The notes below the pieces were generated by a model. It worked only from the letters and a program-made list of their open reading frames with translations, searched no databases and had not been told where the DNA came from. Made by a program: the position numbers and the translations under genes. From NCBI GenBank assembly GCA_965215265.1, contig OZ244048.1, positions 3,552,001-3,616,000 of the forward strand: a DNA stretch of 64,000 nucleotides, read 5' to 3'. Of this stretch, positions 1,303 through 37,600 are shown piece after piece (the stretch's first letter is position 1; the number at the start of each line of letters is the position of its first letter). This DNA is from Candidatus Poribacteria bacterium (GTDB lineage: Bacteria; Poribacteria; WGA-4E; WGA-3G).

Positions 1303-2418
1303 ACCTAAGTTGCCAGCTATAAAAAAGTTGTAAATCCATGGGTTCTCCTTTATAGTGTTTATATCACAATAAAACCAAAGGAGCCCCCATGGACTTAACT
1401 ATTGTAGCAGTTTATACCCTTTGTGACGCTCCTTTACTCTCACTCGGACATCAAGAACATCTACAAACACAGATGACAGATGCAGAAGTGATGACTACCG
1501 CCCTTGTCGCCGCCAGAGACTTCGCAGGCACTCATCAAAATGCATGTTCTGCTTTGAAGACGCTCGGCTATATTCCAAATAGGCACCGAGCGTCTCGATA
1601 CAATCGTAGACTTCATCGAATCACACCGCTGTTTGAGGCACTCTTTGAACATCTCGCTCAAACCGCCAAAACGGAGAACGACAATAACATCTATTCGGTG
1701 GATACCTTTGCTGTCGCAGTCTGTGATAATATCCGTTTTTGTATATCTCCGTAAAGAATTGTCCCTGCTTGCAGGGTGAATTCTTGTCCGTCAACGCTTA
1801 TGATTTTGTTAAATCGTGTGTAAATTTCGTAGGAGATTCCCTTAGGCATAGCATAAAGCAAGCGGCTCTGGCGAGATTTTCACAGGGTTGTAAATAGCAG
1901 CAGCCTTTATTGGGCTGAAATATACGACATTTCTCGGTTTCGCAGGTATCAAGGCGAAGCCTACCTAGGGAAGATTGCCAGCAAACGGCGGCATTTCTAT
2001 GGGCTCAAAGTCCATCTGATGGTGTCTGAATCAGGGGCTATCGTTGAAGCTTTCTTCACACCGGGGAGCAGTAACGATGTGCTTGGCATGCGGTGTTATC
2101 GTTTTTACCTGCCTGCGGGTTCCGTGATGGACACCGATAAAGCATATTGCAACTATGCCATTGAAGATGCCCTGGGGGATATAGAGATTATGTTCAAACC
2201 GTTACGGAAGAAGAATGCCAAACGGCAGTATCCGCCGCCTGAAGTCTATCTACACCAGTCTTACAGAAAACGCGTTGAAGTGACAAAGAGTCTTGTTGAA
2301 AAACTCTTACCGAAGTCTATCCACGCGGTGGCGGCCCACGGATTTGAACTGAAACTTCTTTTATTTCTCATCGCCATAAATATAAAAATGCGATTTAAAG
2401 ATTCGTGGCAATCTAGGT
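1303..2418 (+). mobile_element. IS982-family insertion sequence, inactivated
   Basis: Imperfect terminal IRs ACCTAAGTTGCCA (1303) and TGGCAATCTAGGT (2418) flank an IS982-type DDE transposase. Confidence 0.85.
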
Positions 2419-2426
2419 TAATTTAA
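1389..2426 (+). pseudogene. IS982 transposase split by a 192-bp repeat insertion
   Basis: MTDAEVMT, SRYNRRLH and VDTFAVAVCDNIR, then the insert, then ISRFRRYQGEAYLGKIASKRRHFYGLKVHL, DKAY and RKRVE in the same frame. The insert 1737-1928 carries a stop codon. Confidence 0.85.
1737..1928. repeat. R1 inverted pair (MITE-like composite) with a nested R2 hairpin
   Basis: Left arm TTTTGTATATCTCCGTA...GTGTGTAAATTTCGT; right arm GGCGAGATTT...GGGCTGAAATATACG; nested hairpin AAGAATTGTCCCTGCTTGCAGGGTGAATTCTT. Same layout as 37441-37600. Confidence 0.85.
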
Positions 2427-2493
2427 TGTAAAAGGACACATAGCACAACGCTTAGCGTCTCAAAATCAGGATACGGAAGATAAAATCACAACG

Positions 2494-2567
2494 ATGTTAA
2501 CAATTGGTAACCTCCACATCCCCATTTTCCCCTCCTCCTTGCACCGATGGAAGATGTAAGCGATACG
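2494..2567 (+). pseudogene. dusB: 5' fragment of a tRNA-dihydrouridine synthase (DusB-like)
   Basis: MLTIGNLHI, a 1-nt frameshift, then HFPLLLAPMEDVSD matching the Dus N-terminal LAPM motif. Similarity stops after this. Confidence 0.6.
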
Positions 2568-2758
2568 ATACGGCTGCGCACTCCTATTGTCCAATCGCAT
2601 CATAGAATTTCATCAGAATTTCTCCGATTGATTGCGGGTGCATTTGTTGTAACCTTAATGATACTTTTTATCTGTTAAGATTGCAAGAAAAAAAATGAGC
2701 AAACGTTGACTTTTTTGCATACGCGCCCCCAATTCGCATTTTTTTGCAGAAAATGTTA

Positions 2759-2900
2759 AAAAATGATGATTTCTCCGAAAAAAAAGGATCTTTTGTTCGA
2801 CCCGGCTTGCATTTTTTTACGTCTTGTTCAGAAAAATGATCATTTTTCTGAAAAAACGGGTCTTTTGTTCGACCCGGCTTGCATTTTCCTACGTCTTGTT
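2759..2900 (+). repeat. 72-bp tandem duplication upstream of the ECF sigma gene; possible duplicated ECF promoter
   Basis: TCTTTTGTTCGACCCGGCTTGCATTTT..TACGTCTTGTT at 2789 and 2861. Each copy has GACCC-N16-CGTCTT. Confidence 0.75.
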
Positions 2901-3033
2901 ATTATGAAAGGCGCAGGAAAATACGAGCGAAAAATCGCCAAATGTGAAAAAACGGTGACTTCCTGCGACAAATTTAATCACTTGTAAGGTGGCGGGACAT
3001 ATTTCACTTTTTCCGACACCTTAAGAATAGCAC

Positions 3034-3618
3034 ATGGAACCTGAAACTTTGACAACGAATTCAGACACTCACTTACTTGAACGCATCCAAAAAGGGGACG
3101 ATACCGCCCTCGTAGCACTCATTGAAAGGTATAAACCTTTGATGATGACTATCGTGCGCGGTGAAGTCCCGGCTTATGCGGTAGAGGATGTGTATTTAGA
3201 TGCGCGTGCGGCGATGGTGGTTCGGTTTCGCAGGAATCCCGACGGCATCCGCACCGTGGACAAGTGGGTGAAGCAGGTGACGCGGAGCAAATGTCTCGAG
3301 TTCGGGCGGCAGCTTGCCAAAGAACAGGATGTGCGTGCTATTGCCGAAGACCTCTATAAAGCCGCAGAGGAGCGAGAGTTGCACCGGCATCTGTCTCGGG
3401 ACGTGCCTGATGAAGAAGAGGCGATGGCGGTTATCAAGGCACTAGGTTCCAAGTCTGTAGAAGTAGCCGTATTGCGTGCGGCGGGTTACACGTTGTCGGA
3501 GATAGGCAAACGGCTGAGAATTCCGAAGGACACGGCGAAGTCACGCTGGTGGAAGATTCGTGAGCGTGTTCATGAACATTTCGGATTGCCGTTTCCACCG
3601 AAAAACGAGAAGTCCTAA
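3034..3618 (+). CDS. ECF-type RNA polymerase sigma factor
   Basis: LLERIQKGDDTALVALIERY (region 2) and GYTLSEIGKRLRIPKDTAKSR (region 4 HTH). Confidence 0.8.
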   Translation: MEPETLTTNSDTHLLERIQKGDDTALVALIERYKPLMMTIVRGEVPAYAVEDVYLDARAAMVVRFRRNPDGIRTVDKWVKQVTRSKCLEFGRQLAKEQDVRAIAEDLYKAAEERELHRHLSRDVPDEEEAMAVIKALGSKSVEVAVLRAAGYTLSEIGKRLRIPKDTAKSRWWKIRERVHEHFGLPFPPKNEKS

Positions 3619-3785
3619 CGCGATTCAGGCTGCTTCCGGTTTATCCCTTTTTTGGATTCAAAAGGGGGAATGTATATTCACTTTCGTTGATTTATTTTGA
3701 TGCAGTGGACGTGTTATACTGAGTCACGGCGCCTCCTAATCAAAATGAGCGCTCTCATCTTTACCGTCCACAAGGAAAATCACTC

Positions 3786-4472
3786 ATGTTAAAGAACTAT
3801 TGGAAAACCGTCGCTGGTATGCTTCTCGTGCTGGTCCTCGGAGCGACAGGATATTTCCTCTGGTACCAACATCGGATGGCGCAGCTCCATGCGAACCCTG
3901 TCAAAATCTACAAGGGTACGATACGAGAAGCGACCGTGGTGCCAACCGCCACACCCTCTGCCGAGGCAGAGACTGTGCAAGGCGGGCATTGGCCTGGCGA
4001 GGAATGGCAGAGTGAATCACACACGATATCGCAACAGACAGATACTGTTGACACCATCGATACAACTGATGACACGATCGATACAGAGGAGATCGTTCCT
4101 TTTGAACCAACGGTTGAGGCGGATGTGCCTTGGGAAGAAACCGCAGAAGCCGAGCGGCTTTCACAGACATTGCTTCAGGATTGGAATGATTACTCCCAAA
4201 CTTTACTAGAGAAGTATCCAGCGATTTTTGATCCGGATGTACTTGAAAGAATGGCTCAGACTCAGGAGGGAAGAGCCTCGCTCAAATTACAAGCTGAATC
4301 TATGATAGAGGAGACTTTAGGTGAATTTGAGCGTCTGTTTAATCAACTTCCGAGAGAATTTGCACACGAAGTGCTTGATGTTTTGGAAGTTGAATTTCAA
4401 CAAAACCCACAAGGATTGCCCCCAGAATATATTCACCGAGCGCTAGGTAGAATGCGGGCAAGACTGAATTAA
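3786..4472 (+). CDS. Membrane-anchored hypothetical protein
   Basis: N-terminal TM helix, QGGHWPGEEW motif, acidic linker and helical C-terminus. AAGGA RBS. Confidence 0.7.
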   Translation: MLKNYWKTVAGMLLVLVLGATGYFLWYQHRMAQLHANPVKIYKGTIREATVVPTATPSAEAETVQGGHWPGEEWQSESHTISQQTDTVDTIDTTDDTIDTEEIVPFEPTVEADVPWEETAEAERLSQTLLQDWNDYSQTLLEKYPAIFDPDVLERMAQTQEGRASLKLQAESMIEETLGEFERLFNQLPREFAHEVLDVLEVEFQQNPQGLPPEYIHRALGRMRARLN

Positions 4473-4482
4473 TGGAGGTTAT

Positions 4483-4956
4483 ATGATGATTAGAGATTTT
4501 CATAAGACAAAAACACGAAGAAGCCTGGGAGTCGGTCTGCTGATGGTTTTCATGATAATGATAACACTGTCCCCCGTTTTTTCCGACGACTGGAGAGATT
4601 GGGTGGGTCACGGCGTAGCGGTTGTTGGCCTAGGGGTGGCTGTCGCCGGTACAGCTGTGACATCCCCTGTATGGGGACCTGCACTTACTGTTGGTGGATT
4701 TTGTGCGGCCGCGGTCGGTATAGGTATAGGTATCTTGGATACAATGGATGACTCCGATGAGGATGAGACTTGTAGTCGTTGTAATGTGACATATGCACGA
4801 GGGACGGATCATTATTGTATATATGATCATATAGATGAAGAGCATGGCGGTGATGAGTCTTCCGAAGGCTCTTACGGTTATAGTACTGGGGGTTACGGCT
4901 ATTGCCCCAATGGTCATTATTATTCTGGAGTACATTCCTGTTACAGTAGTGATTAA
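4483..4956 (+). CDS. Secreted hypothetical protein with a Gly-rich hydrophobic hairpin and a Cys/His-rich tail
   Basis: Signal-like N-terminus, GVAVVGLGVAVAG and AAAVGIGIG, CSRC..HYC and CPNGH..HSC. GGAGG RBS. Confidence 0.7.
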   Translation: MMIRDFHKTKTRRSLGVGLLMVFMIMITLSPVFSDDWRDWVGHGVAVVGLGVAVAGTAVTSPVWGPALTVGGFCAAAVGIGIGILDTMDDSDEDETCSRCNVTYARGTDHYCIYDHIDEEHGGDESSEGSYGYSTGGYGYCPNGHYYSGVHSCYSSD

Positions 4957-5065
4957 AGTCGTGAATAGTCGTGAGTTTACCTAGGTCGGGATGATTGCAC
5001 TTTTGGCTGCTTGTGCAAGTGACTTCGCCTGTACTCTTGCATCTATTGGCAGAAAAGAAAGATTT

Positions 5066-5113
5066 AAAAGTATACCTCTAAACATTTTCTTTAATGTTTA
5101 GAGGTATACTTTT
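5066..5113. terminator. Perfect 21-bp inverted repeat, likely intrinsic terminator
   Basis: AAAAGTATACCTCTAAACATT-ttcttt-AATGTTTAGAGGTATACTTTT followed by a T-tract. Confidence 0.6.
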
Positions 5114-5161
5114 TCTTTTTTGCCTGGCTCAGTATATTACATTATTTATTCGGGCGGATTT

Positions 5162-5208
5162 CAGGTGACGCGGAGCAAGTGTCTCGATTTCGGGCGGCAT
5201 CTTGCCAA
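5162..5208 (+). repeat. 47-bp copy of ECF sigma segment 3274-3320
   Basis: 44/47 identical; all three differences fall at third codon positions. Confidence 0.8.
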
Positions 5209-5409
5209 TGGCACCATCGGCATAAACAACGCAGCGTAGGTACATGTCTTAATTATCGGGCTAGTGGTACTAGGCAACATCGTCTTCTTCATTCAGAAAG
5301 GACGACAGAAAAAGCAAAAACCTTGAATCGGCAGGAACGGATTGGGGCTTTACGGGGATGAGGCTTTCTGCGGTGATATTAACATCGTGTGCCTCTTTTC
5401 TTTTTAATA

Positions 5410-5418
5410 TGCTATAAT
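5410..5418 (+). promoter_or_regulatory. Extended -10 promoter element
   Basis: TGCTATAAT about 60 bp upstream of ATG 5480. Confidence 0.45.
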
Positions 5419-5479
5419 TGCTATGTTTAATAAGATAGCAAAATAGTGTTTTTAAATTATAGCAGAATGGGGGTTTGAC

Positions 5480-6202
5480 ATGGCTCGCTTATCCATGATT
5501 GGAAATCATATTGAAAGTTTATTGTCTTTGTGTAAGAAGACACAAAAAATTGCGACGTTGTCGCGTGCGACGGGAGTCTCTGTGCATACGCTTTATCGCT
5601 GGCGTGATCGTGGGAAGTTAGAGGTATCAGGTCTTTATAGGGCTTTTTATGATGCGTTGACTTCGCCAGTAGGTGGCAGTAGCGGTGATGGCAAACTTGT
5701 AGAGCCGACGACGGCGAAAATTACATTAGAGCGAATAGATGCAATACTTGAAAAAGTCAAAATTGGCATGAGCTGGGATGCTATCGCACATGCTGTTGGG
5801 GTTTCGGCGGCGACGTTGTATCGGTGGATGCAGCGTGAGGGAACCGAACAGGCGGGGCTCTATCGCGAATTTTATGATAGGCTTGCTGAGTTGAAAATGA
5901 GTACAGAGTTATCTTTGATTGATTCGGTTATGAATAATGCTGTAGAAAGACAGGAGACTTTTACGAACAAGACGGTTACTAAAACAAAAGAGGGGAGGGT
6001 TGAATTTACATCAACCTCGAAGCCACCTAATGCTGAAATGGCTTTGAAAATGATGGAACGTATTAATCCTGTATTCTGGGCACCGATTGTGCCTCATCGT
6101 GTTGATGTTGATTGGGAGAAGACTGTGCGCGAGCAAGGTGGGGATCCGCGTGAGATTGAGGAGTTTGTTCGGTCGGAATTGGAGAAGGAGGGTTTAATTT
6201 AG
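5480..6202 (+). CDS. Tandem-HTH protein resembling phage terminase small subunits
   Basis: Two repeats, GVSVHTLYRWRDRG..GLYRAFYDAL and GVSAATLYRWMQRE..GLYREFYDRL. MALKMMERINPVFW resembles the AAAWxLERxxPxxW motif of TerS-like proteins (recalled, not searched). Confidence 0.65.
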   Translation: MARLSMIGNHIESLLSLCKKTQKIATLSRATGVSVHTLYRWRDRGKLEVSGLYRAFYDALTSPVGGSSGDGKLVEPTTAKITLERIDAILEKVKIGMSWDAIAHAVGVSAATLYRWMQREGTEQAGLYREFYDRLAELKMSTELSLIDSVMNNAVERQETFTNKTVTKTKEGRVEFTSTSKPPNAEMALKMMERINPVFWAPIVPHRVDVDWEKTVREQGGDPREIEEFVRSELEKEGLI

Positions 6203-6449
6203 AGTCAATGCATCGAACGGCTCAGACGAGATTTACACACGAGCTATCAAAACATAGATGTTGATGGTACGGAGATATAGAAATAAGCGTTGATTGGGAG
6301 AAAACGGTGCGGGATCAGGGTGGGGATCCTGCGGAGATTGAGGAGCTTGCGAGGAAGGTGATTGAGGAATCATAACCTAGTGAGGCTCAGACGAGATTTA
6401 CACACGAGTACCCACGACATAAGCGTTGATGGTACGGAGATATACGAGA
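6188..6449 (+). repeat. Two R1 copies separated by a diverged duplicate of the HTH gene 3' end
   Basis: GACGAGATTTACACACGAG...GTTGATGGTACGGAGATATA occurs twice. 6289-6375 encodes VDWEKTVRDQGGDPAEIEELARKVIEES*. Confidence 0.9.
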
Positions 6450-6453
6450 AGTC

Positions 6454-9400: not shown

Positions 9401-11481
9401 CCGTAGTTGAACTCATCGTAAATGTTTTGAACATCAACAACTTTAGTGCGCATGCCGTTTTGTGCCCGGAAGTTAGCGAGCGCTTGTACGTCTGGAATAA
9501 AAAGCGTATCTGTAATGATGATGTAATCTGCGCCGTTGTGTGTACTGCGTAAGTTGGCGGGTCTATCTTTTTGTATTTCCGGTTTTAGAAATTGTTCCCG
9601 CGTCAGCGCGATGTATTGAATTGTTGTATTCTGTGGATGCGTGTTACCGGTTTGTGTGGTATCAAAAGCGAGTTTGTAGGTGCCTGCTGCTTCCTCATTG
9701 TCCACAATAGGATAGCCGATATAGCGGGTCCCATCAACACCGTAAATCTCAATGTTGGGAGTAGAAAAGTTTTTCAACCACTTTCTGGTGTTAGTCTGTT
9801 CCGGAAAAGGGGTGATTGAAAATGGGAGGACATCCGCTTTTGCCTCAAACGTTCGCCAGTATTCGACTTCAAACCAGTTAAACATGACTCTATCCAAGGT
9901 GCCATCTGAAGCGTCTCGGAGACTGACACGAAGCGTATTTGTTCCTTCTTGCAAAAAGGAGAGTGGGATTTCCTGATTCTCAAATTGGAATTCAATTTGT
10001 CCGTTCCATAGTGGGACTTCAAACCTGCGTTTGTCATTTAACCATAAGTTGACTTGATGTGGAGTGTTAGATCTTCCGTAGAACTGCACGCGTAGTGTTG
10101 CAAATAACCCGGTGCGTGCAACGCCGGGGAGCTCGAAAGGTAACGTTTTTGAACGTGTCGGTGGTACGGATATTGCCGGTAGAGGTGTCCAGAACCAACT
10201 GTCGCTTGGAAGTTCGGGTAGCTCTGTTAGGGTAAAGAAACGTTCCTGTAGTCCTGCACCAATTTGTAAGTACTCACTTCCTTCTGCGAGGTTTGCTTCC
10301 TCAAACCTTGCAAAATGCTGATCTTTCTCAAAATGCGCGCGTGTGAGAAAGCGTTGATAGAAGGGTGGAGGTGCCCCTGTTTCTGTTAACGCATCTCCTA
10401 TATCTGCTGGGGCTGTTTTCGTCCCCATTCGGATTCCGGGGGTGCCACTCCAAGTAAGCCAATAGATGTTTTCATCAGAAAAGGGATCGAAGTAAGTGGT
10501 TTCTCCGCGGTTCCGCTGGCCATAGAAAACAATCTCATCGTCTGGGTCAAAACTTCCATCGCTTTCGCCTCGCACAAAAATAGGTATCTGTCTACCTTTG
10601 TTTGACAGTTTAAACGTAGCTGGTACGATAGAGTCAATATCTTCTACGATGGCTTTTGCCAGGTCTCGTCCGGTGATGTGGTACATTCCATCTTGGCTGA
10701 TAACTATTTTATAGTGCGGGGTGACGGGTAAAACGGTTGTAGGGGCACCAGGTGCCGGTAGGGAAGCAGCACGCCACTGTTTTGCTGTGTGTGGATTGAT
10801 AAGCATATTCTCTAACATTGCGTCGTAAACAGGCGATTCGGGGCGTAGAAACCGGTGCATCGCAGGTGGCGCGCTTCCTGAGCGGTGAAACTGCACTTCA
10901 ACGATGAGCCGATGATAGAACTTAACCTCTCCAGTTACAGGGTTATACTGTACTGGGTTCAGTTGAATTGGGAGGACTCTATTCTCTCGAATCCAGCCTG
11001 CTGCTTTGATTTCAACGGCTCTGTCAGGAAAAAAACGGTTCTTAGAAGTTGTACGTGTTCTATGTTCTAGCGCAGCTACAGTGCGTATGCGAAAGTCACT
11101 TTGAACGATGCGGAGTGTAAAATCCGCGTCAGGTGGTACCCCGATTAACGCTGATTTTACGGGCATCGGCGGCATGCCCGGCTGGGTTGTGAAATCGGCA
11201 CCGGGGAACGAAAATGGAGAAATCGGAGATGGCGGGGAAAAGGTATTCTTCTCTGTCCTCGAGGACAGAGAAGGAAAACCGAACCCCGCTAATTGTGCAT
11301 CCGGTAGTGCAGCAACATTAAAATCAGTTTCCGGGATAATGAGTTGAATTTTTATGCTGTGCACGGTCGCACTGAGCAGTTCAATCTCTCCGCTTGACCG
11401 TGCAGTTTTTTTTCCATGTACACCGAACGTGGCTATGCCTAAGAGTAATAGAATCGTCGTGAATAAAAAGGTCTGTTTCAT
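6454..11481 (-). CDS. Peptidase C25 (gingipain-like) with propeptide and C-terminal FlgD-Ig-like sorting domain
   Basis: ADYIII, YVFLVGD, DMLIGRIP, VNYIGHG, SMTCYTAHFD, LFGDP, and C-terminal NFPNPF...LANGVYLYK. Confidence 0.9.
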   Translation of the reverse strand: MKQTFLFTTILLLLGIATFGVHGKKTARSSGEIELLSATVHSIKIQLIIPETDFNVAALPDAQLAGFGFPSLSSRTEKNTFSPPSPISPFSFPGADFTTQPGMPPMPVKSALIGVPPDADFTLRIVQSDFRIRTVAALEHRTRTTSKNRFFPDRAVEIKAAGWIRENRVLPIQLNPVQYNPVTGEVKFYHRLIVEVQFHRSGSAPPAMHRFLRPESPVYDAMLENMLINPHTAKQWRAASLPAPGAPTTVLPVTPHYKIVISQDGMYHITGRDLAKAIVEDIDSIVPATFKLSNKGRQIPIFVRGESDGSFDPDDEIVFYGQRNRGETTYFDPFSDENIYWLTWSGTPGIRMGTKTAPADIGDALTETGAPPPFYQRFLTRAHFEKDQHFARFEEANLAEGSEYLQIGAGLQERFFTLTELPELPSDSWFWTPLPAISVPPTRSKTLPFELPGVARTGLFATLRVQFYGRSNTPHQVNLWLNDKRRFEVPLWNGQIEFQFENQEIPLSFLQEGTNTLRVSLRDASDGTLDRVMFNWFEVEYWRTFEAKADVLPFSITPFPEQTNTRKWLKNFSTPNIEIYGVDGTRYIGYPIVDNEEAAGTYKLAFDTTQTGNTHPQNTTIQYIALTREQFLKPEIQKDRPANLRSTHNGADYIIITDTLFIPDVQALANFRAQNGMRTKVVDVQNIYDEFNYGIVNPYAVREFLKYAYQNWQPPAPTYVFLVGDTHNSPKTHPNFVPTIQVQIPGYGSSASDHQFVTFRGDDSFPDMLIGRIPATNRVDVRTFVEHAINYETNAEIGPWQKRLLMLAGTDWRFHSQTEGLLKQNEIRSKYEITPIYAPITQTETASEQNNLFVGRQVIDAFNDGVSIVNYIGHGAGGVWSSSRMLDLEDPEQNLTNIAQLPFVISMTCYTAHFDGNSSCLAEELLRSQNGGAIAVIGGTSIGLLDGDYILNRAIFDVIFKDKTSHIGAILAEAKTLFLINAPSYFDLAEVFTLFGDPATQLRLPHTQMKLTADIDQTSMMVSGALANHNFTGNAEIVVFPRSLQSSRDTEIEPPPPERETVPVVNGQFTTEILLPANSQFDNGNIQAYAWNTEEDAIGYANYNALQRYLDNVRIVPYPVEPEQPVHLYTEVRNKNDIEAMTLFWSLDGFEFETIPVVQHTGSTYRSEQPIPGYPARELIDYYLEVEVRGGKTFQTEIETYEFGLIDVDLTILQETIAWNIEPPFTLSAQIRNRATMPARDVSVHFFQMPTQADTGTTTPTLEALQNATQIGEVQMLAEVLPETHVIVSVPWQPPLGNYLVTVVIDLPSQAHPKGNIIERRELNNIAARQFKNNRILLTPKHREITSVDGALHLSVSPESLQSSTVMTFEQRELSIANQPDIFPIVEINASGETVADASVAYHFSVNEPAELKATASFIKPANSDAHIYMLHAETRNWIRIGNETLTDEKISTQVTLPGTFALLSHADSRPPILEMTVEHQGFIDGDYVSKSPTISARIEDANGIDPRTENLLITKNGARVPQDEYVIASSPVNSRVLLVTYTPVLEAGEYRIRLQAQDANGNPASTEHTANVAGEFAIKNIANFPNPFRPGRGTDFAYYLTERADQVSLKIYTLTGRLISTIDTLDASVSYNEFHYDGIDADGEPLANGVYLYKFTARKDDKRKQKVGKIVVLK

Positions 11482-11483
11482 AC

Positions 11484-11766
11484 TTTTATATATTTCCGTA
11501 CCATAAAGGGTTATGTTGTGTTAAATCCGATGTAGATCTCGTCGGAGGTTCCTGATGTAATGAATCTAAACCTAGAAGAGCTCAGACGAGTGGCAGGATA
11601 GGTAAGTTTACGAAACGAAATTGAGGGTGGTGCCCGCCCACCCGAATCCTTCTTTGTTTCTCCTGAAACCTGAGGTCAATACCTTACCCGTCAACCCAAT
11701 GGGTGGCGAGTAAAAGGTAGTGATAGCGTGTCCTTCAGGACTCGCGATACTACCTATCTCGCCACT
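11484..11766. repeat. R1 copy fused to an R2 composite
   Basis: TATATTTCCGTACCAT...GTAGATCTCGTCGG, then CTCAGACGAG joined to TGGCAGGATAGGTA, CCCGCCCACCCGAATCC, CCCAATGGGTGGCGAGTAAAAGGTAG and CTACCTATCTCGCCAC. Confidence 0.85.
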
Positions 11767-12370: not shown

Positions 12371-12384
12371 TTTTTTCTCCTCTA

Positions 12385-12640
12385 TTTTCGTATACTGGAG
12401 CCCCATCAACGTCTCTGTTTTGATAACTCGTGTGTAAATCTCGCCAGAGCCATTCTAGGTTATGATTCTTCAATAACTTTTTTATTTTCGTATACTGGAG
12501 CCCCATCAACGTCTCTGTTTTGATAACTCGTGTGTAAATCTCGCCTTTTTCGTATATCTCCGTACCATCAACGCTTAGGTATTGACAGCTCGTGTGTAAA
12601 TCTCGTCGGAGATTCCTTAGGTTATGATTCTTCAATAACT
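12385..12640 (-). repeat. Three head-to-tail R1 copies
   Basis: 12383-12445 is identical to 12483-12545. Third copy from 12546. Tails CTAGGTTATGATTCTTCAATAAC. Confidence 0.9.
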
Positions 12641-12717: not shown

Positions 12718-12797
12718 TTTTTCTGTATCTCTCCGTAAAGAAGTTCTCCCTGCAAGTGGCAGGATAGGTATGGCTCCCACCCACCCAAATCCTTGAG
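12718..12797. repeat. R1 end joined to an R2 fragment
   Basis: GTATCTCTCCGTA joined to AAGAAGTTCTCCCTGCAAGTGGCAGGATAGGTA...CCCACCCACCCAAATCC. Confidence 0.75.
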
Positions 12798-13070
12798 TTA
12801 GCCTGCAACATCAAACCGGTCTACGATACCCATCACAAGTTCACGGATAGGGGCATTCTCAACCCCGAAGACTTCTTGTGCAACGCCGGGGCCTGCTCCA
12901 ACAATTACCGTGTCACCTTCACCGGCACCAACGTAATCAACAGCAATCGTTGGCGTACGGACTACCTCGGATTTTAGGCTTAGTGGTTGGATGAGCAGCA
13001 GTGTGCGATTTTGATACGCAGAATGCTTAATAACTGAAACAACTTTGCCAATGACTTTTGCTAGGTACAT
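12798..13070 (-). CDS. eutN: EutN/CcmL microcompartment vertex protein
   Basis: MYLAKVIGKVVSVIKH...AVDYVGAGEGDTV...MGIVD. Confidence 0.9.
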   Translation of the reverse strand: MYLAKVIGKVVSVIKHSAYQNRTLLLIQPLSLKSEVVRTPTIAVDYVGAGEGDTVIVGAGPGVAQEVFGVENAPIRELVMGIVDRFDVAG

Positions 13071-13110
13071 GTTTAGAATTTAGTTAATCGGATTGGACAG
13101 CATTTCTTCG

Positions 13111-13197
13111 TTTCTGTATATCTCCGTACCATCATCACTTATGTCACGATGTCTTATATGTAAATCTCGTCAGAGCCATTTGATGTATTGACTCTAA
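13111..13197 (-). repeat. R1 copy
   Basis: GTATATCTCCGTACCATCA...TGTAAATCTCGTCAGAGCC...GACTCTAA. Confidence 0.85.
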
Positions 13198-13236
13198 ACA
13201 TCATCCGTTGGTTGAAGGTGGTATTGGTTCAGTCTC

Positions 13237-15352: not shown

Positions 15353-15357
15353 TCATC

Positions 15358-18245: not shown

Positions 18246-18279
18246 TTTTTGTATATTTCAGCCCGATAACGCCTGATGT
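18246..18279 (-). repeat. Truncated R1 copy
   Basis: TTTTTGTATATTTCAGCCCGATAACGCCTGATGT, identical to the start of the copies at 15256 and 31355. Confidence 0.8.
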
Positions 18280-31080: not shown

Positions 31081-31145
31081 GTTCCCCAGAACTATGGTAG
31101 TCGGCGAGTGAGCACGTCAGAGCTCACCCACGGAAAATATGTCTA

Positions 31146-31230
31146 TTCGTATATCTCCGTACCATCAACCTCTATGTTTTGATAGCTCGTGTATAAATCT
31201 CGTCTGAGCCTCTTGATGTTTTGTCTCTAA
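31146..31230 (-). repeat. R1 copy
   Basis: GTATATCTCCGTACCATCAACC...ATAAATCTCGTCTGAGCC...TCTCTAA. Confidence 0.9.
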
Positions 31231-31258
31231 ATAGAGAGAAGAGAGAGATGAACAGATT

Positions 31259-32055
31259 ATGGCACATTTTTCTGATATTAAAGTCCTTACGTTTGACTTA
31301 TTCGGAACGATTTTAGACCTCGGTAGTAGCCTTACACCGTTTATTGAAGAATCATTTTTTTGTATATTTCAGCCCGATAACGCCTGATGTATTGTCAATG
31401 ACTGTATAAATCTCGTCTGAGCTTCTTGATGTTTTGACTCTAAATTAAACCCGCCTTAACTGTGCGCGGGGCCAACGTATCGCCGGGTACATTTTGGGAA
31501 CAGTGGCGGTACCGTCAGCGGATTGAGCAATATCAGGACACGATTACGATGCTTGGGCATAGCGGTTATTTAGAAACAGTGCGTCGTGCCTTGCACTATA
31601 CACTGAGAGGCAACGGTGTTGATGCCTCCCCCGAGACTGTAGAAGAATTTATGCAAGGTTGGCATCACCTTTCTCCATTTCAAGAAGTTTTAGTAGCCCT
31701 CAAACGTTTGCAAATTCGCTATCAGTTAGTCGTGCTCTCCAACGGGGATGCGGATTTTTTAGCTTACCTCGTTAGCGAAAGGGTTGATTGGCAATTTGAT
31801 CAGGTAATTTCGGTTACATCCTTCGGCGCGTTTAAACCGCATCCGGCTGTCTACCGCGGTGCTGCTGGAAAACTTGGTGTTGATGTCAACGCGTGCATGA
31901 TGGTATCGGCAAATTCGTTTGACATCATGGGGGCGCGGGCGTGTGGGTACAAAGGTGCATTTGTAAACCGCTATCGCCTACCCTATGAGGATACCCTTTA
32001 TCAACCTGATTTAACAGTAAACGATTTTACGGAATTGGCAGCAGCATTGCTGTAA
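31259..32055 (+). pseudogene. Haloacid dehalogenase type II interrupted by a 101-bp R1 insertion
   Basis: MAHFSDIKVLTFDLFGTILD...FIEES, insert 31355-31455, then LTVRGANV...LSNG..FKPHP..SANSFD. The insert shifts the frame and contains stops. Confidence 0.85.
31355..31455 (-). repeat. R1 copy inside the HAD gene
   Basis: Ends GACTCTAAATTAAACCC, the reverse complement of the last codons of the 5480-6202 gene (GGGTTTAATTTAGAGTC). Confidence 0.9.
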
Positions 32056-32101
32056 ATGAAAGTAGCTCGTTCAAGGACTGCCCGGAAAGGTGACGGTAGT
32101 T

Positions 32102-34702
32102 TCAATTATTTTCTAATGCTTTAGCAACTAGCACAAGGTCAAGAATGTTGACAATGCCATCTCTATTTAGATCTGCTAGGTTTTCCTCTCCGGGTTCTCC
32201 AAACTGCGACGAAACCAGCATCAAATCCTGAAGAGTGACAACACCGTCGCCATTGATATCTTCGGGCCGTTGTAGAGTTGGCGGTGCCTTGCGTTCCGGG
32301 TAACTAAAGTATTCTTTAATGCGGGGCGCATCTTTGAAAAACATCAGATTTTCCTCAGAGATGCTATCGATCTTCTGAATAAGCCATCTATCATTTTTTT
32401 TCACTAAGTAAATGTACGTCTCTCCAGGGTAGGCACCTTTGAAGCAATTGGGGCCCTTCGCGCTGGCCTCTGTTGGAAGTATCCAGAAATTTGTGAGTGC
32501 ATCATCTGGTCCCCACTTATCGTCTCTAGTCCCGAAACCGTTCCATAAGCCTTTAAATGCTACTGTGACATCGTCCCAACCTCTTGCGATAGGGATCCAT
32601 GCACTGCGCGAAAACACAGTACCAAATTGGGGTTCTGAGGTATCAAATGTTGCTGCGACCTTATCGATATCTTTATCGTTAAAGGCACGATAAAAGTCAC
32701 TATAAACTTTCTGGATTTCAATTTTCGCTGCCTCAAATTCAATCGGCGGTAGTGCTGCTGTAGCTGCTGGTTCAAAAGACGAGGCTTCCTGCATCATGTT
32801 GTTTGCAAGTGTATGTTGCGAAATTATATTGCCTAAATCCCAGAATAACACCGTACCATCTTCATTTCCGGAGGCGAGTGTTTGCCCGTCAGGGCTAAAA
32901 AAGAGGGATACGATACCGGCAGGTCCGGCGAATGAGCCTTTGAGTGCACCAGAATGGGTATCCCACAATAGCACTGTCCCTATTCTACTTCCACTTGCGA
33001 GTACGTTCCCATCTAGACTGAAGGTAACACTCCAGACATCATCTGTATGCCCAAGGAGCGTCGTTTTGAGTTTAGCGGTGCTTATATCCCATAGGAGAAC
33101 AGTTTTCCGGCTTCCACTTGCAAGCGTGCGGCCGTCAGGGCTGAAGGCAAGGCTTCGAATCCTGTCTCTATGTCCGGTGAGTGTAACTTTGTGATGTCCA
33201 CTTGGAACATCCCATAGACGTACCGCTCCTCGACTTCCACTTGCAAGCGTCTGTCCATCCGGACTGAAAACAACACTCGGGGTGCCATCTATATGCGCAA
33301 GGAGCGTTCTTTTATGGTGCCCACTGATAGTATCCCACAAGCAGACCTTAGTATCTGCACTCCCACTGGCAAGAATGCGCCCATCTGGACTGAATGCAAG
33401 GCTTCGGACACCCCGCGTATGTCCAACGAAGGTATTTTTATGTTTTCCTGTTTCTACATCCCATAACCGGATCGTGTGGTCTCTAGAGCCCCCAGCACTT
33501 GCAAGCGTCTGCCCATCCGGACTGAAGACGACAGCTTGAATATAACTTGTATGGCCAGTGAGAACGGCTTTTTGCCGTCCCGTGCCAACATCCCACAACC
33601 GCACTGTCTTATCATCACTTGCCGCGGCCAGTGTGCGCCAATTAGGCGTGAAGGTAAAAGTTTCGCCACTCATTGCATGGCCCGTAATCGTAGTTTCACG
33701 CGTACCAGTGATACTATCCCACAGATACACCGTGCCATCCCAACCTACACTCGCAAGCGTGCGTCCATCTGGTGCGAACGCAACGCTTGAGACGCTATCT
33801 GTATGAGATAACGTGTTTCTATAGGTGGCACTAGGGAAGTCCCACAAACACACCGTGCCGTCCGAGCTCGCACTAGCAAGCGTCCGTTCATCGGTACTGA
33901 AGTCGAGACTATAGACTTGGGCTGTATGCCCCGTGAGAGTGGCTTTGTGTTTACCTGTGACAACATCCCAGAGACGCACTGTCGTGTCAAAACTTGCACT
34001 GGCAAGCGTTTTCCCATCCGGACTGAAAGCGATTGAAGTGAGCTCATTCGTATGGCCTGTTAGTCTTAATTTGACACGTCCCGTGACAGTATCCCGGAGT
34101 TGTATCGTGTCATTTTCCCAACCATCAGTTGCAAATGTGCGACCGTCCGGACTAAAGACAAGGTTCTTTACTGAATCCGTATTCCCGCGAAACGTCGCTT
34201 TATGTTCGCCCGTGACAGCATCCCAGAATCGCACTGTGTTGTCGTGCCCTCCCGTACTAGCAAGGGTCCGCCCATCAGGACTGAAAGTGACACTTGCAAT
34301 CCGGGATTTATGCTCCGTGCGTATGGTTTTATGTTCACTTGTGATAGTATCCCAGAGCCGTAACGTCTTATCAGACGCAGCTGCACTTGCAAGTACATGC
34401 CCATCGGGACTGAAAGCAATGCTCATAATACCGCCTATCTGCCCGGTAAGCAAGTTTAGTTCTTCATACGTGTGTGTATCGTAGAGCCAGATACCGATGG
34501 TCGTTGCAACTGCAAGCCGAGTGCCATCCGGAGAGAAGATGACATTCCCAAATATCCAGCCTTTCCCAATGCGCTGTTTGGCTCCTTGTGGTAATTTCCA
34601 CTGTGTATAATCTGCAACAGAGGCGAACGTAAAAAATACAAAAAAGGTAAGTAGCGTTAATATAGCGGTTTGCAGGCTTCGTGTGAGTCGCCGCATTTCC
34701 AT
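32102..34702 (-). CDS. Secreted WD40-repeat protein with an NTF2-like insert and C-terminal dockerin
   Basis: Signal peptide, LPQGAKQRIGKG, many GH..FSPDG..WD repeats, and DINGDG..DLNRDGIVNILDL. Confidence 0.9.
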   Translation of the reverse strand: MEMRRLTRSLQTAILTLLTFFVFFTFASVADYTQWKLPQGAKQRIGKGWIFGNVIFSPDGTRLAVATTIGIWLYDTHTYEELNLLTGQIGGIMSIAFSPDGHVLASAAASDKTLRLWDTITSEHKTIRTEHKSRIASVTFSPDGRTLASTGGHDNTVRFWDAVTGEHKATFRGNTDSVKNLVFSPDGRTFATDGWENDTIQLRDTVTGRVKLRLTGHTNELTSIAFSPDGKTLASASFDTTVRLWDVVTGKHKATLTGHTAQVYSLDFSTDERTLASASSDGTVCLWDFPSATYRNTLSHTDSVSSVAFAPDGRTLASVGWDGTVYLWDSITGTRETTITGHAMSGETFTFTPNWRTLAAASDDKTVRLWDVGTGRQKAVLTGHTSYIQAVVFSPDGQTLASAGGSRDHTIRLWDVETGKHKNTFVGHTRGVRSLAFSPDGRILASGSADTKVCLWDTISGHHKRTLLAHIDGTPSVVFSPDGQTLASGSRGAVRLWDVPSGHHKVTLTGHRDRIRSLAFSPDGRTLASGSRKTVLLWDISTAKLKTTLLGHTDDVWSVTFSLDGNVLASGSRIGTVLLWDTHSGALKGSFAGPAGIVSLFFSPDGQTLASGNEDGTVLFWDLGNIISQHTLANNMMQEASSFEPAATAALPPIEFEAAKIEIQKVYSDFYRAFNDKDIDKVAATFDTSEPQFGTVFSRSAWIPIARGWDDVTVAFKGLWNGFGTRDDKWGPDDALTNFWILPTEASAKGPNCFKGAYPGETYIYLVKKNDRWLIQKIDSISEENLMFFKDAPRIKEYFSYPERKAPPTLQRPEDINGDGVVTLQDLMLVSSQFGEPGEENLADLNRDGIVNILDLVLVAKALENN

Positions 34703-34723
34703 GGATTCGGTCTCCTGTTTGAT

Positions 34724-36790
34724 TTAATTTTGTGATTTTTGTATTACTGCAGCGATCAGCACAAGATCTGCAATATTGATAACTCCGTCCTCATTGACAT
34801 CCGCGAGGTTATCTGTACTCGGCTGCCCGAATAGTTCAGCAACAACAGTCAGATCCAGTAGATCTACAACACCGTCACGGTTGACATCTTCACGGAATTG
34901 CCGAATTTCTTCTTCACCATCCACTGTTTGCGGAATGTCCCAGAGTAGCACCGCTGCTCCACTACTTGCCAGGGTGTTGCCATCCGGACTAAACATGATA
35001 CTATAAATTGAACCTGCATTCGGGCTGAGCGTTGCTTTAATCTCACCCATGGTAGCATCCCAGAAGTGTACCTTCTGGTCTCCGCGAGCACCGCCGGCAC
35101 TCGCGAGGATCCGGCCGCCCGGACGATAGGTAACGCTATTGACTGGACCTGTATGTCCGATGAGAGAGATTTTGAGCATACCACTCCGAGTATCCCAGAG
35201 TCGGACGGTGTTATCGTCACTTCCACTCGCAATAGTACGACTATCTGGACTAAAAGCGACGCTATTGACTCGTTCTGTATGTCCGATGAGGACGACTTTT
35301 TGCGTACCAGCAGCGACATCCCAGAGTCGGACGGTGTTATCGTCACTTCCACTCGCAATAGTACGACTATCTGGACTGAAAACGACTGAAGTAACACCCC
35401 TTATATGCCCACGCAGTGTGCTTTTGTGTGTGCGAGCGGCATAGTACAACTGCACTGTACTCTGGCTACTGCCACTAGCGAAGAGTAGACCGTCCGGACT
35501 AAAGGCGATTGAGGCAATCCCTGAACCACTGGCCCTATTGCCGGTATAACCTTTGATGGTTGCTCTGTGAGTACTGTTAGAAACATCCCACAGACGTATA
35601 TGCCATCCAATACCACTTGCCAGTGTCTTGCCATCCGGACTGAAAGTCAAAGAGTTACCTGACTCCTCAGTGAGTGTTGCTTTGTGGACACCTATGGTGG
35701 GATGCCACAAGTTTATCTCCCTCCAACCTCTAGCGGCAAGTATGTTACCCTCAGGATTGAAAGCGACTGAAGAAACACCCGGTGTATGCCCCATAATTGC
35801 CCCTATTTGTGCCCCATTCCCAGCATCCCACAGATACAGCTCACCCGTTCCACCACTTGCTAAAGTCTTACCGTCCGGACTAAAGGCAATTGCATAAACG
35901 CTAATGCTTGACAGATGGCCGGTGAGCGTAGCTTTATGTGCACCTGTAGTTGCTTCCCATAGATTCAATTCGCCCCAGCCGCTGCTAGCAAGGGTCCTAC
36001 CATCCGGACTGAACAAAACGTACGACATACGTTTAGGGAGAGTTGCCTTGTGTTCGCCAGTTGCAACGTCCCAGATCCCACCATTTCCGTTCCAACTCCC
36101 AGTTGCAAGTGTTTTGCTATCCGGACTGAAATCGATCCCCCAAACATCTTCCGTATCTACCGTGAGTACCGTTCTAAGCTGCCAATTCGTGATATCCCAC
36201 AAACGTACTGTGTTGTCCTTGTAGCCCCCACCGGTTGCAAGCATCTGGCCATCCGAACTAAAGACAACAGAGTGTACACTCCCCTCATGTCCTGTGAGCG
36301 TGGTTTTGTGTTGTTCACTCACAACATCCCATACACGCACGGTACGGTCTCCACTTCCACTGGCTAGGGTGCGGCTGTCCGGACTAAAGTCCAAACTATA
36401 GACATCGCGCTCATGCCCTATAAGTGTGGTTTTGAGTTGTCCGCTGACAGTAGCCCACACCCGCACTGTACCATCATAACCCCCACTTGCGAGCCTCTGG
36501 CCGTCTGGACTGTATGCGATACAGCTAACACCGCCCGTATGTCCGGTGAGTAGATCGAGTTCTTCACCGGTGGATGTATCGTAACTCCAAATTCCGATGG
36601 TAGTGGCTACGGCGAGGCGGTTTCCATCAGAGGTATAGGCTAAGTCACTGATACTCCCCTTGCCTAACCGCGCTTTAGCACCCTCAGGTAAGCCCCATTC
36701 GGTGTAATTTTGAGAAAAAACAGTTGGAGTAGAGATTGTTAAAGTTAATATCGTCTGCAGTAAGATGTGCACTAATTGCCTTATTTTCAT
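34724..36790 (-). CDS. Secreted WD40-repeat protein with C-terminal dockerin
   Basis: LPEGAKARLGKG, WD40 repeats, and DVNRDG..DVNEDGVINIADL. Confidence 0.9.
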   Translation of the reverse strand: MKIRQLVHILLQTILTLTISTPTVFSQNYTEWGLPEGAKARLGKGSISDLAYTSDGNRLAVATTIGIWSYDTSTGEELDLLTGHTGGVSCIAYSPDGQRLASGGYDGTVRVWATVSGQLKTTLIGHERDVYSLDFSPDSRTLASGSGDRTVRVWDVVSEQHKTTLTGHEGSVHSVVFSSDGQMLATGGGYKDNTVRLWDITNWQLRTVLTVDTEDVWGIDFSPDSKTLATGSWNGNGGIWDVATGEHKATLPKRMSYVLFSPDGRTLASSGWGELNLWEATTGAHKATLTGHLSSISVYAIAFSPDGKTLASGGTGELYLWDAGNGAQIGAIMGHTPGVSSVAFNPEGNILAARGWREINLWHPTIGVHKATLTEESGNSLTFSPDGKTLASGIGWHIRLWDVSNSTHRATIKGYTGNRASGSGIASIAFSPDGLLFASGSSQSTVQLYYAARTHKSTLRGHIRGVTSVVFSPDSRTIASGSDDNTVRLWDVAAGTQKVVLIGHTERVNSVAFSPDSRTIASGSDDNTVRLWDTRSGMLKISLIGHTGPVNSVTYRPGGRILASAGGARGDQKVHFWDATMGEIKATLSPNAGSIYSIMFSPDGNTLASSGAAVLLWDIPQTVDGEEEIRQFREDVNRDGVVDLLDLTVVAELFGQPSTDNLADVNEDGVINIADLVLIAAVIQKSQN

Positions 36791-36853
36791 AGTACCGGTC
36801 TCCAGTTAGCAAGATATTGTGTGCTGTGATTATTGCAAATATTATGCCAATAG

Positions 36854-37600
36854 TTTCTTGTATATTTAAGCCCCATCAACGCTTAGGTATTGACAGCCCG
36901 TGTGTAAATCTCGTCGGAGCCTCTTGATGTATAGTAAAACAGCACTGCTATCTTTCTATCTTATCAGGAAGCACATGATTGTCCAGAATTTGAACATTTC
37001 ATGCTAATAATCTGTAAACCGAGGGTGGACGTGGGGCGAATAACGGGATGGTGGGAGTTGATCTCTATAAGTAGGGAAAGATATTTATCAAATCAGTTTT
37101 TTTTGTATATCTCCGTACCATCAACGTCTAGGTAATGATAGCTCGTGTATAAATCTCATCGGAGACTCTTGATGTTTTGTCTCTAAGATGCAACTTTTTT
37201 GTATATCTCCGTACCATCATCTGCAGTTGCCCTATATTGTGCAAAGACATCAGGATTGCCCGTTTTTGTGCAAATTATTTTTGATGTTTTTTTCGTATAT
37301 CTCCGTACCATCACTGCTTATGCATTGTTTAATCGTGTGTAAATCTCGTCGGAGACTCCTTAGGTATAGTCTTTTAAAATCAAAACCTAAAATCGCTCAG
37401 AAGTTCGGGCGGAGTACACTCCGCCCGTATGTGAGAAAGGTTTTCGTATATCTCCGTACCGTCAACGTCTATGCTTTTGAGGGCTCGTGTGTAAATCTCG
37501 TCGGAGATATCTTAGGCATAGCGTAGCATAAAGCGGCTCTGGCGAGATTTGTATAGGCCTTATCAAAGCAGCAACCTTTATGGTACTGCAGTAGACGAAA
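36854..37600. repeat. Cluster of six R1 copies, the last two forming an inverted pair
   Basis: Copies at about 36854, 37097, 37195, 37287 and 37441, plus the inverted arm 37530-37600. GC hairpin CGGGCGGAGTACACTCCGCCCG at 37406-37427. Confidence 0.9.

Follow-up and report, generated by a model that had tools for sequence, protein, structure and literature searches.

The R1 copies of the window

The window, i.e. the whole 64,000-nucleotide stretch of DNA analysed here, carries an HTH gene and numerous copies of a short repeat, R1, which are arranged as follows.

1737-1927, + (left arm) and - (right arm, unit 1870-1925): tail-to-tail inverted R1 pair
5480-6202, +: single-copy HTH gene for a 240-aa double-HTH protein resembling the phage terminase small subunit (terS-like)
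6196-6294, -: R1 copy (unit 6225-6280) directly after the HTH stop codon, the "master" arrangement M1
6289-6375, +: truncated second HTH 3′ end (about aa 208-236) with the variant-2 ending ...GAATCATAA
6353-6456, -: R1 copy (unit 6390-6445) following this truncated HTH end
11475-11598, +: diverged R1 copy (unit 11488-11543)
12382-12635, +: three R1 units, 12390-12445 with a tail, 12490-12545 without, 12552-12607 with a tail
13109-13211, +: single R1 between two EutN/CcmL genes
13581-13723, +: two tandem R1 units of 61-nt period, tail on the second
15189-15350, +: two unlike tandem R1 units and a tail
18246-18279, +: 34-nt fragment with the same sequence as 15257-15290, comprising the T-run, box 1 and the first part of the core
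19592-19617, +: box-1-only fragment, directly adjoining the native start codon of ribBA on the - strand (ATG, 19591-19589)
31139-31233, +: single R1 in the spacer ahead of a HAD gene
31355-31455, +: 101-nt R1 in a HAD hydrolase gene (7 T, unit 31362-31417, 38-nt tail)
36853-37602: R1 cluster with copies at 36853-36936 (+), 37096-37186 (+) and 37261-37407 (+) and a box-1-only fragment at 37201-37219
37441-37552 (+) and 37493-37602 (-): inverted pair ending this cluster

An IS982-family transposase gene flanks the first inverted pair in two pieces (1389-1754 and 2019-2426), and the left arm of the pair is broken at 1754-1787 by a 34-nt palindromic insert, which is another small repeat. The truncated HTH end (6289-6375) lies in tandem behind the first R1 copy. 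At 15189-15350, a sigma-54-type response regulator gene has its native ATG (15194-15192) immediately next to the R1 fixed end and 6 A, as read on the - strand.

A profile search (nhmmer) detected 21 R1 matches in the window, all inside 1788-37602. Fragments were found in addition at 18246-18279, 19592-19617, 37201-37219 (box 1 only) and 1737-1753, so that the "about 24 copies" of the sequence-only reading is a fair count of a real repeat. Box 2 with at most 2 mismatches had 20 matches (0.52 expected), 19 of them within 1818-37502 and one at 59144, and box 1 with at most 3 mismatches had 14 (0.00 expected). The whole 4.83-Mb genome of this sponge-associated bacterium yielded 787 nhmmer matches. 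A looser definition gave 551 candidate units, about 46 of which are expected by chance according to our estimate; 20 lay in the window, two of them without nhmmer support. The copies are not assembly artefacts, as contigs of four runs from four other studies cover the region. These contigs break at R1 repeats, and one contig of run X6 extends from 20795 through the 31139 copy into the 31355 copy.

A sharp end and a ragged, gene-derived tail

In the 56-nt R1 unit, a 23-nt core separates box 1 from box 2. The element has one sharp end and one ragged end, an asymmetry missed by the sequence-only reading. The sharp end is GTATA(T/C) with 5-7 T in front (on the opposite strand, GTATAC followed by a run of 5-7 A), and column conservation begins abruptly at the T-run. 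No target tetranucleotide was seen adjoining this fixed end. The opposite end is a gene-derived tail of variable length. Counting box-2-like matches with an exact GTATA upstream, the distance from GTATA to box 2 was 42 nt in 267 cases, 43 nt in 35 and 41 nt in 16 genome-wide. The constant core spacing noted earlier was thus confirmed, but this distance makes the core 23 nt rather than about 21 nt. To call the core hypervariable was an overstatement: it is divergent and the most variable part of the unit, yet a consensus is clearly visible in its columns (positions 26-29 and 32-33 are almost fixed, and many columns have two alleles), and recent substitutions are not concentrated in it. The unit consensus has a G+C content of 39% (genome, 48%). 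R1 shows a BOX-like modularity, in which one to six units with a 60-62-nt period (51 such tandem junctions) are followed by one tail; single units make up 264 of the 377 loci.

The tail reproduces, in reverse complement, the DNA just downstream of the HTH gene together with its stop codon and final codons; tails penetrate this gene (5480-6202) by about 5 to 190 nt. That they originate from a gene 3′ end had also gone unnoticed. In an alignment, the gene ending occurs in two variants, which correspond to the two principal types of tail. With box 2 as the anchor, 147 of 500 tail-bearing candidate units aligned to the two masters, whose stop codons are 22 and 14 nt away from that box; the other 353 had no anchored match, and the extents are from BLAST, whose local alignments can stop early. 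The 92 M1-type tails (master included) measured 5-24 nt in 20 cases, 25-29 nt in 43, 30-44 nt in 23 and at least 45 nt in 6. The 55 M2-type tails (master included) measured 15-29 nt in 30 cases, 30-39 nt in 12, 55-64 nt in 5 and 80-134 nt in 6, the longest being one of about 190 nt and one of about 300 nt.

A tblastn search of the genome recovered one full HTH gene and seven fragments restricted to the C-terminal part of the protein, starting at aa 190-215 and ending at aa 221-240. All had an R1 match within about 45 nt of the end of the tblastn match, in the same relative orientation. Being 58-86% identical to the HTH protein, the long fragments could be decayed gene duplicates instead of fresh truncated copies. 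The far junction of one of them has a possible AAAATG microhomology (n = 1). An otherwise unrelated 199-aa homologue conserves the C-terminal domain, indicating that this domain is native to the HTH protein. The HTH gene was not found in the same-genus genome G001, and among 175 other genomes of the phylum only weak relatives turned up, in 8 of them.

Restriction to one species, recent copies and orientation

Searches of 175 other genomes of the phylum, G001 among them, detected no R1, and neither did a search of 40 relatives. A strict R1 pattern had no match in the genome-contig and metagenome-contig collections; a looser one had three single matches, which is about the chance rate by our estimate. 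G001 has conserved gene order with about 78% identity and short spacers. Its spacers of 39, 44, 136 and 76 nt correspond here to 121, 191, 464 and 167 nt (the first three being those of 13109-13211, 13581-13723 and 12382-12635), and the difference is filled by R1. R1 has also entered a gene. The 101-nt copy at 31355-31455 lies between two adjacent codons of the HAD hydrolase gene and introduces a stop codon and a frameshift, and the gene is intact in all four aligned orthologues (the G001, G011, G003 and G009 loci). No target duplication longer than TT was present at this site, which is the single clean one, as intergenic junctions are too diverged from G001 to be read.

Many copies are recent. 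For 206 of 421 units, a copy located over 5 kb away differed at no more than 2 of 56 nt, and 61 units have an identical distant twin. The recent spread proposed earlier is borne out within the window, where the copies at 15255 and 31355 differ at one of 60 positions. Module shuffling was confirmed as well: the 37098 copy is 98% identical to the 15194 copy over 60 nt, with tctctaagatgcaact common to both loci, and in 217 near-identical unit pairs the identity usually extends as far as the T-run at one end (mode 5 nt) and 0-6 nt past box 2 at the other. Neighbouring units in a tandem, by contrast, are dissimilar, with 12.9 differences on average. The 280 substitutions on the 217 links between close copies comprised 175 transitions and 105 transversions, with 5.1, 7.2, 5.0 and 3.7 changes per consensus A, C, G and T site, respectively, and box 2 was conserved even among recent copies. 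These are ordinary changes with no adenine or thymine excess, and adenine-targeted mutagenesis of the DGR type, which had been raised for the core, is therefore rejected. Nor is R1 a DGR variable/template repeat, as the differences are not concentrated at the adenines of one strand.

In gaps between same-direction genes, the A-run end pointed with the genes in 361 R1 matches and against them in 195. An ORF of at least 100 aa began within 400 nt past the A-run end in 171 of 267 units and on the other side in 63. The reading direction that matters functionally is mostly the reverse complement, toward downstream genes, another feature that had been overlooked. In 26 of the 551 candidate units the A-run lies exactly 6 nt before an ATG; the genes concerned include efp and gyrA, and those slightly farther away include rph (13 nt) and tsf (25 nt), all named by reading N-termini. 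The start codons were native in both cases checked. No excess of promoter- or terminator-like sites was detected at R1. The A-run end, often with GGAG, could serve as an A-rich leader directly before a start codon, and copies may survive mainly where the A-run faces the next gene because of this capacity.

The transposase content of the genome consists of IS982-family fragments, one adjoining an inverted pair, and weak DDE_Tnp_1 matches; an intact one was not found. The genome (G000) gave no match to IS110, rve or the TnpB zinc ribbon, nor to PF01797 (Y1_Tnp), whose control was positive in 6 of 14 genomes. PF04986 (Y2 HUH) also had no match, yet its control was negative in all 14 genomes. The sole RVT_1 match is a DGR reverse transcriptase accompanied by bAvd and an FGE-sulfatase-type target. 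YhgA/Transposase_31 nucleases are present in multiple copies. An integron attC array was considered and rejected, since the one Phage_integrase match of the genome contains an in-frame TGA and the repeats lie in conserved operons, not in cassettes.

How R1 may have multiplied

R1 probably represents species-specific, small, non-autonomous, selfish repeats that recently multiplied in one genome. Copying would start at the fixed end and run a variable distance, in a one-ended, copy-and-paste manner, and new copies would be placed in spacers without target duplication. The conserved boxes may then allow gene conversion or template switching between copies, a reshuffling that would explain why 61-nt tandem arrays contain unlike units and why one unit can occur with different tails. 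Their possible use as leaders would make them tolerable ahead of genes.

An alternative that we regard as unlikely is that R1 is a two-ended MITE, an inverted pair of about 160 nt moved in trans by a DDE transposase, e.g. of the IS982 family, with singles and arrays as products of decay and recombination. Correia/NEMIS, ERIC and RUP elements are MITE examples; they are non-autonomous, insert beside genes and change leaders. R1 is likewise non-autonomous, about 100-160 nt long, moderately AT-rich and located beside genes. The 63 tail-to-tail pairs, with preferred gaps of 33, 41 and 48-49 nt and TIR-like ends (T-run plus GTATAY...), resemble ordinary inverted-repeat elements; 40 of them fold, at a mean of about -48 kcal/mol, and the genome retains IS982-family fragments. 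However, the terminal inverted repeats occur only in these pairs. The predominant singles end in the variable gene-derived tail without an inverted repeat, near-identical single units occur at distant loci, and the one clean insertion is a single without duplication. Inverted ends and target duplication are the defining features of MITEs (PMC3049150). Furthermore, pair arms are 60.5% alike, below the 67.2% of random units, and an intact transposase was not found in the genome.

Spread through RNA, in the manner of SINEs or 5′-truncated LINEs, is quite improbable. Reverse transcription of A-run-ended transcripts would begin at their 3′ end, at nicked targets, early stops would leave ragged 5′ ends, and template jumps would join unlike units at 61 nt. 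Eukaryotic SINEs and 5′-truncated LINEs have a fixed A-rich 3′ end, a ragged 5′ end and chimeric head-to-tail joins. In outline R1 matches them by its fixed A-run end and graded truncation into the upstream gene; the precise period of its 51 tandem junctions with unlike neighbours, the bias toward the transcribed orientation and the possible AAAATG microhomology at one long fragment (n = 1) also fit. Against this, there is no partner reverse transcriptase, the only one present belonging to a DGR, and R1 lacks adenine-specific changes; no target duplication was seen at the clean site, and the A-run is very short (5-7 nt). A more specific form of the idea, speculative and again rather improbable, is that R1 is a bacterial counterpart of SINEs, made by template-directed synthesis from the A-run end of a terS-like-gene transcript or single strand, with early stops and template jumps, by a polymerase not recognised as a reverse transcriptase or transposase, and possibly at YhgA/Transposase_31 nicks. 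We know of no SINE-like elements of such a kind in bacteria.

It is very unlikely that the host keeps R1 for a function, either as binding sites for a terS-like HTH or nucleoid protein or as structured leader or spacer RNA. The constant 42-nt spacing, the conservation of box 2 among recent copies and the two copies directly behind the HTH gene would suit such a role. So would one strongly covarying position pair, 21:41 (C:G to G:C), which recurs in several box-1 classes with a mutual information of 0.82-0.89 (at most 0.58 with other partners); this pair is the sole hint of the protein-binding or recombination sites suggested by the sequence-only reading. A structure chosen by eye paired in 77.3% of cells in 18 window copies and in 70.5% after shuffling, but it was drawn from the same sequences. 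RNAalifold found no consensus fold for R1, the mean folding-energy z-scores were 0.24 (+) and -0.15 (reverse complement) in 80 of 248 distinct units, and Rfam had no match at gathering score in the 64-kb window. The lack of promoter- or terminator-like excess, the split HAD gene and the failure to find R1 in the 175 other genomes searched, a sister species with the same operons included, also argue against a host function. Finally, a core diversified by DGR-type adenine mutagenesis, or copies that are assembly artefacts, is hardly credible: a DGR does exist elsewhere in the genome and no part of the unit varies more than the core, but the 280 recent changes show no A/T excess, 61 units have identical distant twins and contigs of four independent studies carry copies.

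The preferred reading, selfish repeats multiplied by one-ended copying, can be compared with other known systems. IS91, ISCR and Helitrons move by rolling-circle transposition, with one fixed end, a variable other end that may include sequence of adjoining genes and no target duplication. R1 shares the fixed end, the variable end with gene sequence and the missing target duplication, but has neither a Y1 match nor a target tetranucleotide by its fixed end. BIMEs are known mosaic clusters of the REP type. REP and REPIN sequences with their RAYT transposases amount to hundreds of short extragenic repeats (PMC3116915). R1 resembles REP, BIME and REPIN in its singlets, inverted doublets, mosaic clusters and lineage-specific character; unlike them it has no Y1/RAYT gene, its 56-nt unit is not a hairpin, singlets dominate and doublet arms are unlike. 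BOX elements of Streptococcus pneumoniae are composed of boxA, a variable number of boxB and boxC, and have terminal inverted repeats, target duplications and a candidate IS partner, according to PMC3049150. R1 is like BOX in being a small, interspersed, modular, intergenic repeat with a tandem internal module of variable number. Further points of likeness are that BOX is confined to one species and its closest kin, is judged parasitic, is transcribed together with genes and can change gene ends. In contrast to BOX, R1 has singles with one defined end, no duplication at the one clean site, a gene-derived tail and no candidate partner.

Small interspersed repeats are common in bacteria, and for most of these families we know of neither the origin nor the enzyme. 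In R1, the origin of one part can be read directly, as the 3′ end of one rare phage-like gene. R1 therefore lends itself well to studying the origin and movement of such repeats, with its one sharp and one ragged end and in a genome in which the usual transposases were not found. It shows a selfish repeat replacing the native spacers and leaders of conserved operons, those of essential genes included. If true, the SINE-like reading would constitute a new mode of DNA multiplication in bacteria.

Copy number, species range and anatomy of R1

The genome that contains the window (G000) is a single contig of 4,833,177 bases with 48.1% G+C. R1, a small repeat with a 56-nt unit made of box 1, a core and box 2, gave 787 profile matches across this genome, amounting to 76,271 bases in all. 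A loose rule yielded 551 candidate units at 377 loci, among which about 46 chance matches are expected by our own estimate (two of the 20 window units lacked profile support), and a strict set comprised 267 units. Long ORFs hold 14.3% of the R1 bases compared with 83.8% of the genome bases. R1 was found neither in 40 relatives nor in the phylum's 175 other genomes. The strict R1 pattern had no match in genome and metagenome collections, where a looser pattern gave three single matches, about the chance rate by our own estimate. For Poribacteria, we found no paper treating miniature inverted-repeat elements, and a combined literature search on intergenic repeats and complete genomes returned only unrelated papers.

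In the window, a profile derived from the genome copies gave 21 matches, all within 1788-37602, in addition to four short fragments. The two boxes described in the sequence-only reading are real, as both occur far above chance: 20 matches to box 2 (at most two mismatches) were found against 0.52 expected, and 14 matches to box 1 (at most three mismatches) against 0.00 expected. The reported near-identity of the distant copies at 15255 and 31355 was reproduced (one of 60 positions differs), and so was the likeness of the copy at 37098 to that at 15194 (98% identical, with tctctaagatgcaact terminating both loci). The core had been described as hypervariable and of a near-constant length of about 21 nt. 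The spacing is indeed constant, but because GTATA usually lies 42 nt before box 2 (267 cases, with 43 nt in 35 and 41 nt in 16), the core measures 23 nt. Hypervariability was not borne out: the core has a clear consensus in which positions 26-29 and 32-33 are nearly fixed, and many of its columns have two alleles that mark subfamilies. Recent spread of the family, also proposed from the sequence, is evident in 421 units: a counterpart more than 5 kb away is identical for 61 of them, differs at one base for 82 and at two for 63. The copies are not assembly artefacts, since contigs of four other studies contain them; the short-read contigs of four runs end at R1 repeats.

On the strand as read, R1 conservation begins abruptly with 5-7 T and then GTATA; box 1, the core and box 2 follow, then in most cases GGAG, and finally a tail. 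Single units prevail among the loci, and the remainder form pairs and arrays.

Arrangement of R1 units by number of loci
Single unit: 264
Tail-to-tail pair: 41
Tandem of two units: 31
Pair with an additional tandem unit: 16
Tandem of three units: 10
Other arrangements (arrays of up to six units): 15

The tandem period is 60-62 nt at 51 junctions, and tails are absent from internal units. Neighbours within arrays are dissimilar (mean of 12.9 differences per 56 nt), and the two arms of a tail-to-tail pair resemble each other less than random units do. Positions 21 and 41 covary from C:G to G:C far above background in several box-1 classes. This pair is much stronger than any other, and the neighbours of the two positions do not keep pairing.

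Insertion sites and candidate identities

From 6451 onwards, the window is collinear with a same-genus genome (G001) at about 78% identity. Four spacers of 39, 44, 136 and 76 nt in G001 are 121, 191, 464 and 167 nt here, the difference being R1. A 101-nt copy (31355-31455) interrupts a HAD hydrolase gene between neighbouring codons, where it adds a stop and a frameshift, with at most TT repeated across both junctions. This gene is intact in all four aligned orthologues (those of the genomes G001, G011, G003 and G009). No target motif adjoining the T-run of R1 was found. Replication-strand bias of R1 showed no pattern, the GC skew being unclear. All three candidates for empty sites at paralogous loci were array rearrangements.

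Features of the window near R1 copies and other small repeats
1389-1754 and 2019-2426: IS982-family transposase in two ORFs (matching profile positions 1-88 and 120-242), separated by an R1 inverted pair
1754-1787: box 1 of an R1 copy interrupted by a second small repeat, the body of which is palindromic (AAGAATT...AATTCTT)
11711-11748, 15350-15388, 19655-19692 and 20731-20807: further small repeat families (D14, D18)
12796-13515: two genes for microcompartment vertex proteins of EutN/CcmL type; their conserved operon also contains a sigma-54 response regulator and a GAF histidine kinase, and R1 has filled every spacer of the operon
31259-32055: HAD-family hydrolase whose N-terminal DxFGT motif is cut off from the remainder by the R1 insert; the start of the insert is also present in a contig of an independent run
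32073-37681: 5.6-kb block absent in G001, where only 6 nt separate its flanks; it contains two large genes with WD40 repeats (866 and 688 aa), and its right edge has R1 copies

The C-terminal piece of the IS982 transposase has a second copy at G000:3346891, and an alignment of the IS982 copy ends showed no empty site. The junction at 1754-1787, GTAT.TCTCCGTA and then AAGAA, recurs at 12722 (12722-12760), suggesting that small repeats of one kind were inserted within those of the other. An 11.5-kb contig of X6, one of four runs from other studies covering the region, lacks the 102-nt segment 20693-20794, so the small repeat family there is polymorphic between strains.

Several identities of R1 were considered. 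It lies within 300 nt of five of the six copies of a YhgA-like 327-aa family and of three of four methylase copies, as would the end of an element carrying these multi-copy genes; R1 is part of a duplicated block there, and this identity was rejected. The 327-aa protein is related to Transposase_31, and five of its six copies in G000 have R1 just upstream. Multi-copy genes of G000 without classical transposases encode an MgtE_N-domain protein (16 copies) and Transposase_31 (YhgA-like) proteins (15 + 8). A structure drawn on 18 window copies of R1 pairs somewhat better than controls, although it was derived from those same sequences; a structured or known RNA was rejected on the lack of an Rfam match (none in the window at gathering thresholds), the lack of a consensus fold and z-scores near 0. 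DGR-type mutagenesis of the core, raised in the sequence-only reading, is contradicted by 280 recent changes (175 transitions and 105 transversions) with no A/T excess. The single reverse transcriptase of G000 sits in a normal DGR cassette away from the window; this complete-looking system (G000:C1:1418596-1422237) comprises a target with an FGE-sulfatase domain, bAvd and the 354-aa reverse transcriptase, the sole RVT_1 match. A REP/RAYT system and a derivative of IS200/605, IS110 or IS3 type were rejected, as the corresponding enzymes were not found. A CRISPR-like reading, with box 2, the T-run and box 1 as repeat and the core as spacer, was rejected, since individual "spacers" are found again at many loci.

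Tail sequences, the HTH gene and a proposed copying mechanism

R1 tails derive from a gene. In two array comparisons, they continue into ...AAACCCTCCTTCTCCAATTCAGAC, the reverse complement of the end of ORF 5480-6202, which encodes a 240-aa protein with two HTH motifs. A tblastn search with this protein found one full copy and seven fragments of its C-terminal part only, starting at aa 190-215 and ending at aa 221-240, and each of these matches has an R1 copy no more than about 45 nt from its end, always in one relative orientation. By alignment, two variants of the gene ending correspond to the two main R1 tail types. Anchored at box 2, 147 of 500 tail-bearing candidate units align to two masters (reference R1 arrangements with stop codons 22 and 14 nt from box 2), the other 353 having no anchored match. 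Extents of the 147 aligned tails peak just past the stop codon and taper off towards about 190 nt. The HAD insert has a 38-nt tail that ends 13 nt inside the coding sequence. The longest variant-2 fragment (G000:C1:1271324-1271464), with an A-run before it and R1 after it, is an open 46-codon frame (MERINPVFWAPP...) equivalent to the C-terminal domain of the HTH protein and might be expressed as a small protein.

A large protein set contained one distant homologue of the HTH protein, of 199 aa. Since this homologue from elsewhere conserves DWE.TVREQGGDPREIEE, the C-terminal domain is native to the HTH protein. The protein resembles phage terminase small subunits by a PHROGs match (1.4e-11) and language-model features, which are leads and not proof. 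Its gene lies in the part of the window (1-6450) without a counterpart in the G001 segment compared, and was not found in G001; among the phylum's 175 other genomes, eight have weak relatives only, and none were detected in viral or metagenome contig collections. The predicted structure has a mean pLDDT of 39, and PDB sequence searches with two neighbouring ORFs gave no matches.

Four features of R1 call for a common explanation: one sharp end with one ragged end reaching into a neighbouring gene, no target duplication at the one clean site (n = 1), precise yet unlike tandem units, and the joining of the same unit to different tails. We propose that R1 would spread by one-ended copy-and-paste synthesis from its fixed end, and that its copies would then exchange sequence through gene conversion or template switching. 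This scheme accounts for the four features better than a cut-and-paste element whose two ends are both recognised. Of DNA and RNA as possible templates, RNA is disfavoured by the lack of a suitable reverse transcriptase. The only abundant enzyme candidates are the YhgA/Transposase_31 genes (15 + 8 copies).

Orientation towards gene starts

The T-run end is, on the other strand, an A-run end (GTATAC + A). In same-direction gene gaps, this end points with the genes for 361 R1 matches against 195, the matches not being independent. An ORF of at least 100 aa starts within 400 nt beyond the A-run end in 171 of the 267 strict units; beyond the opposite end this holds for 63 of 267. ATG follows GTATAC at a distance of exactly 6 nt in 26 of the 551 candidates, and in 39 the distance is 4-8 nt. 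These genes are unrelated and, by their N-termini, include efp and gyrA; rph lies 13 nt and tsf 25 nt away. The ATG near R1 is the native start in both cases checked, where the repeats replace the spacer of G001. We infer that the A-run end may serve as a leader. The reading as a promoter or terminator module was rejected: 4 promoter-like and 4 terminator-like sites were present where 7.0 and 3.7 would be expected, which is no excess.

R1 is a real, species-specific and recently active family of small selfish repeats. Its general kind is already known, its one-ended architecture is unusual, and its origin is readable in a phage-like gene.
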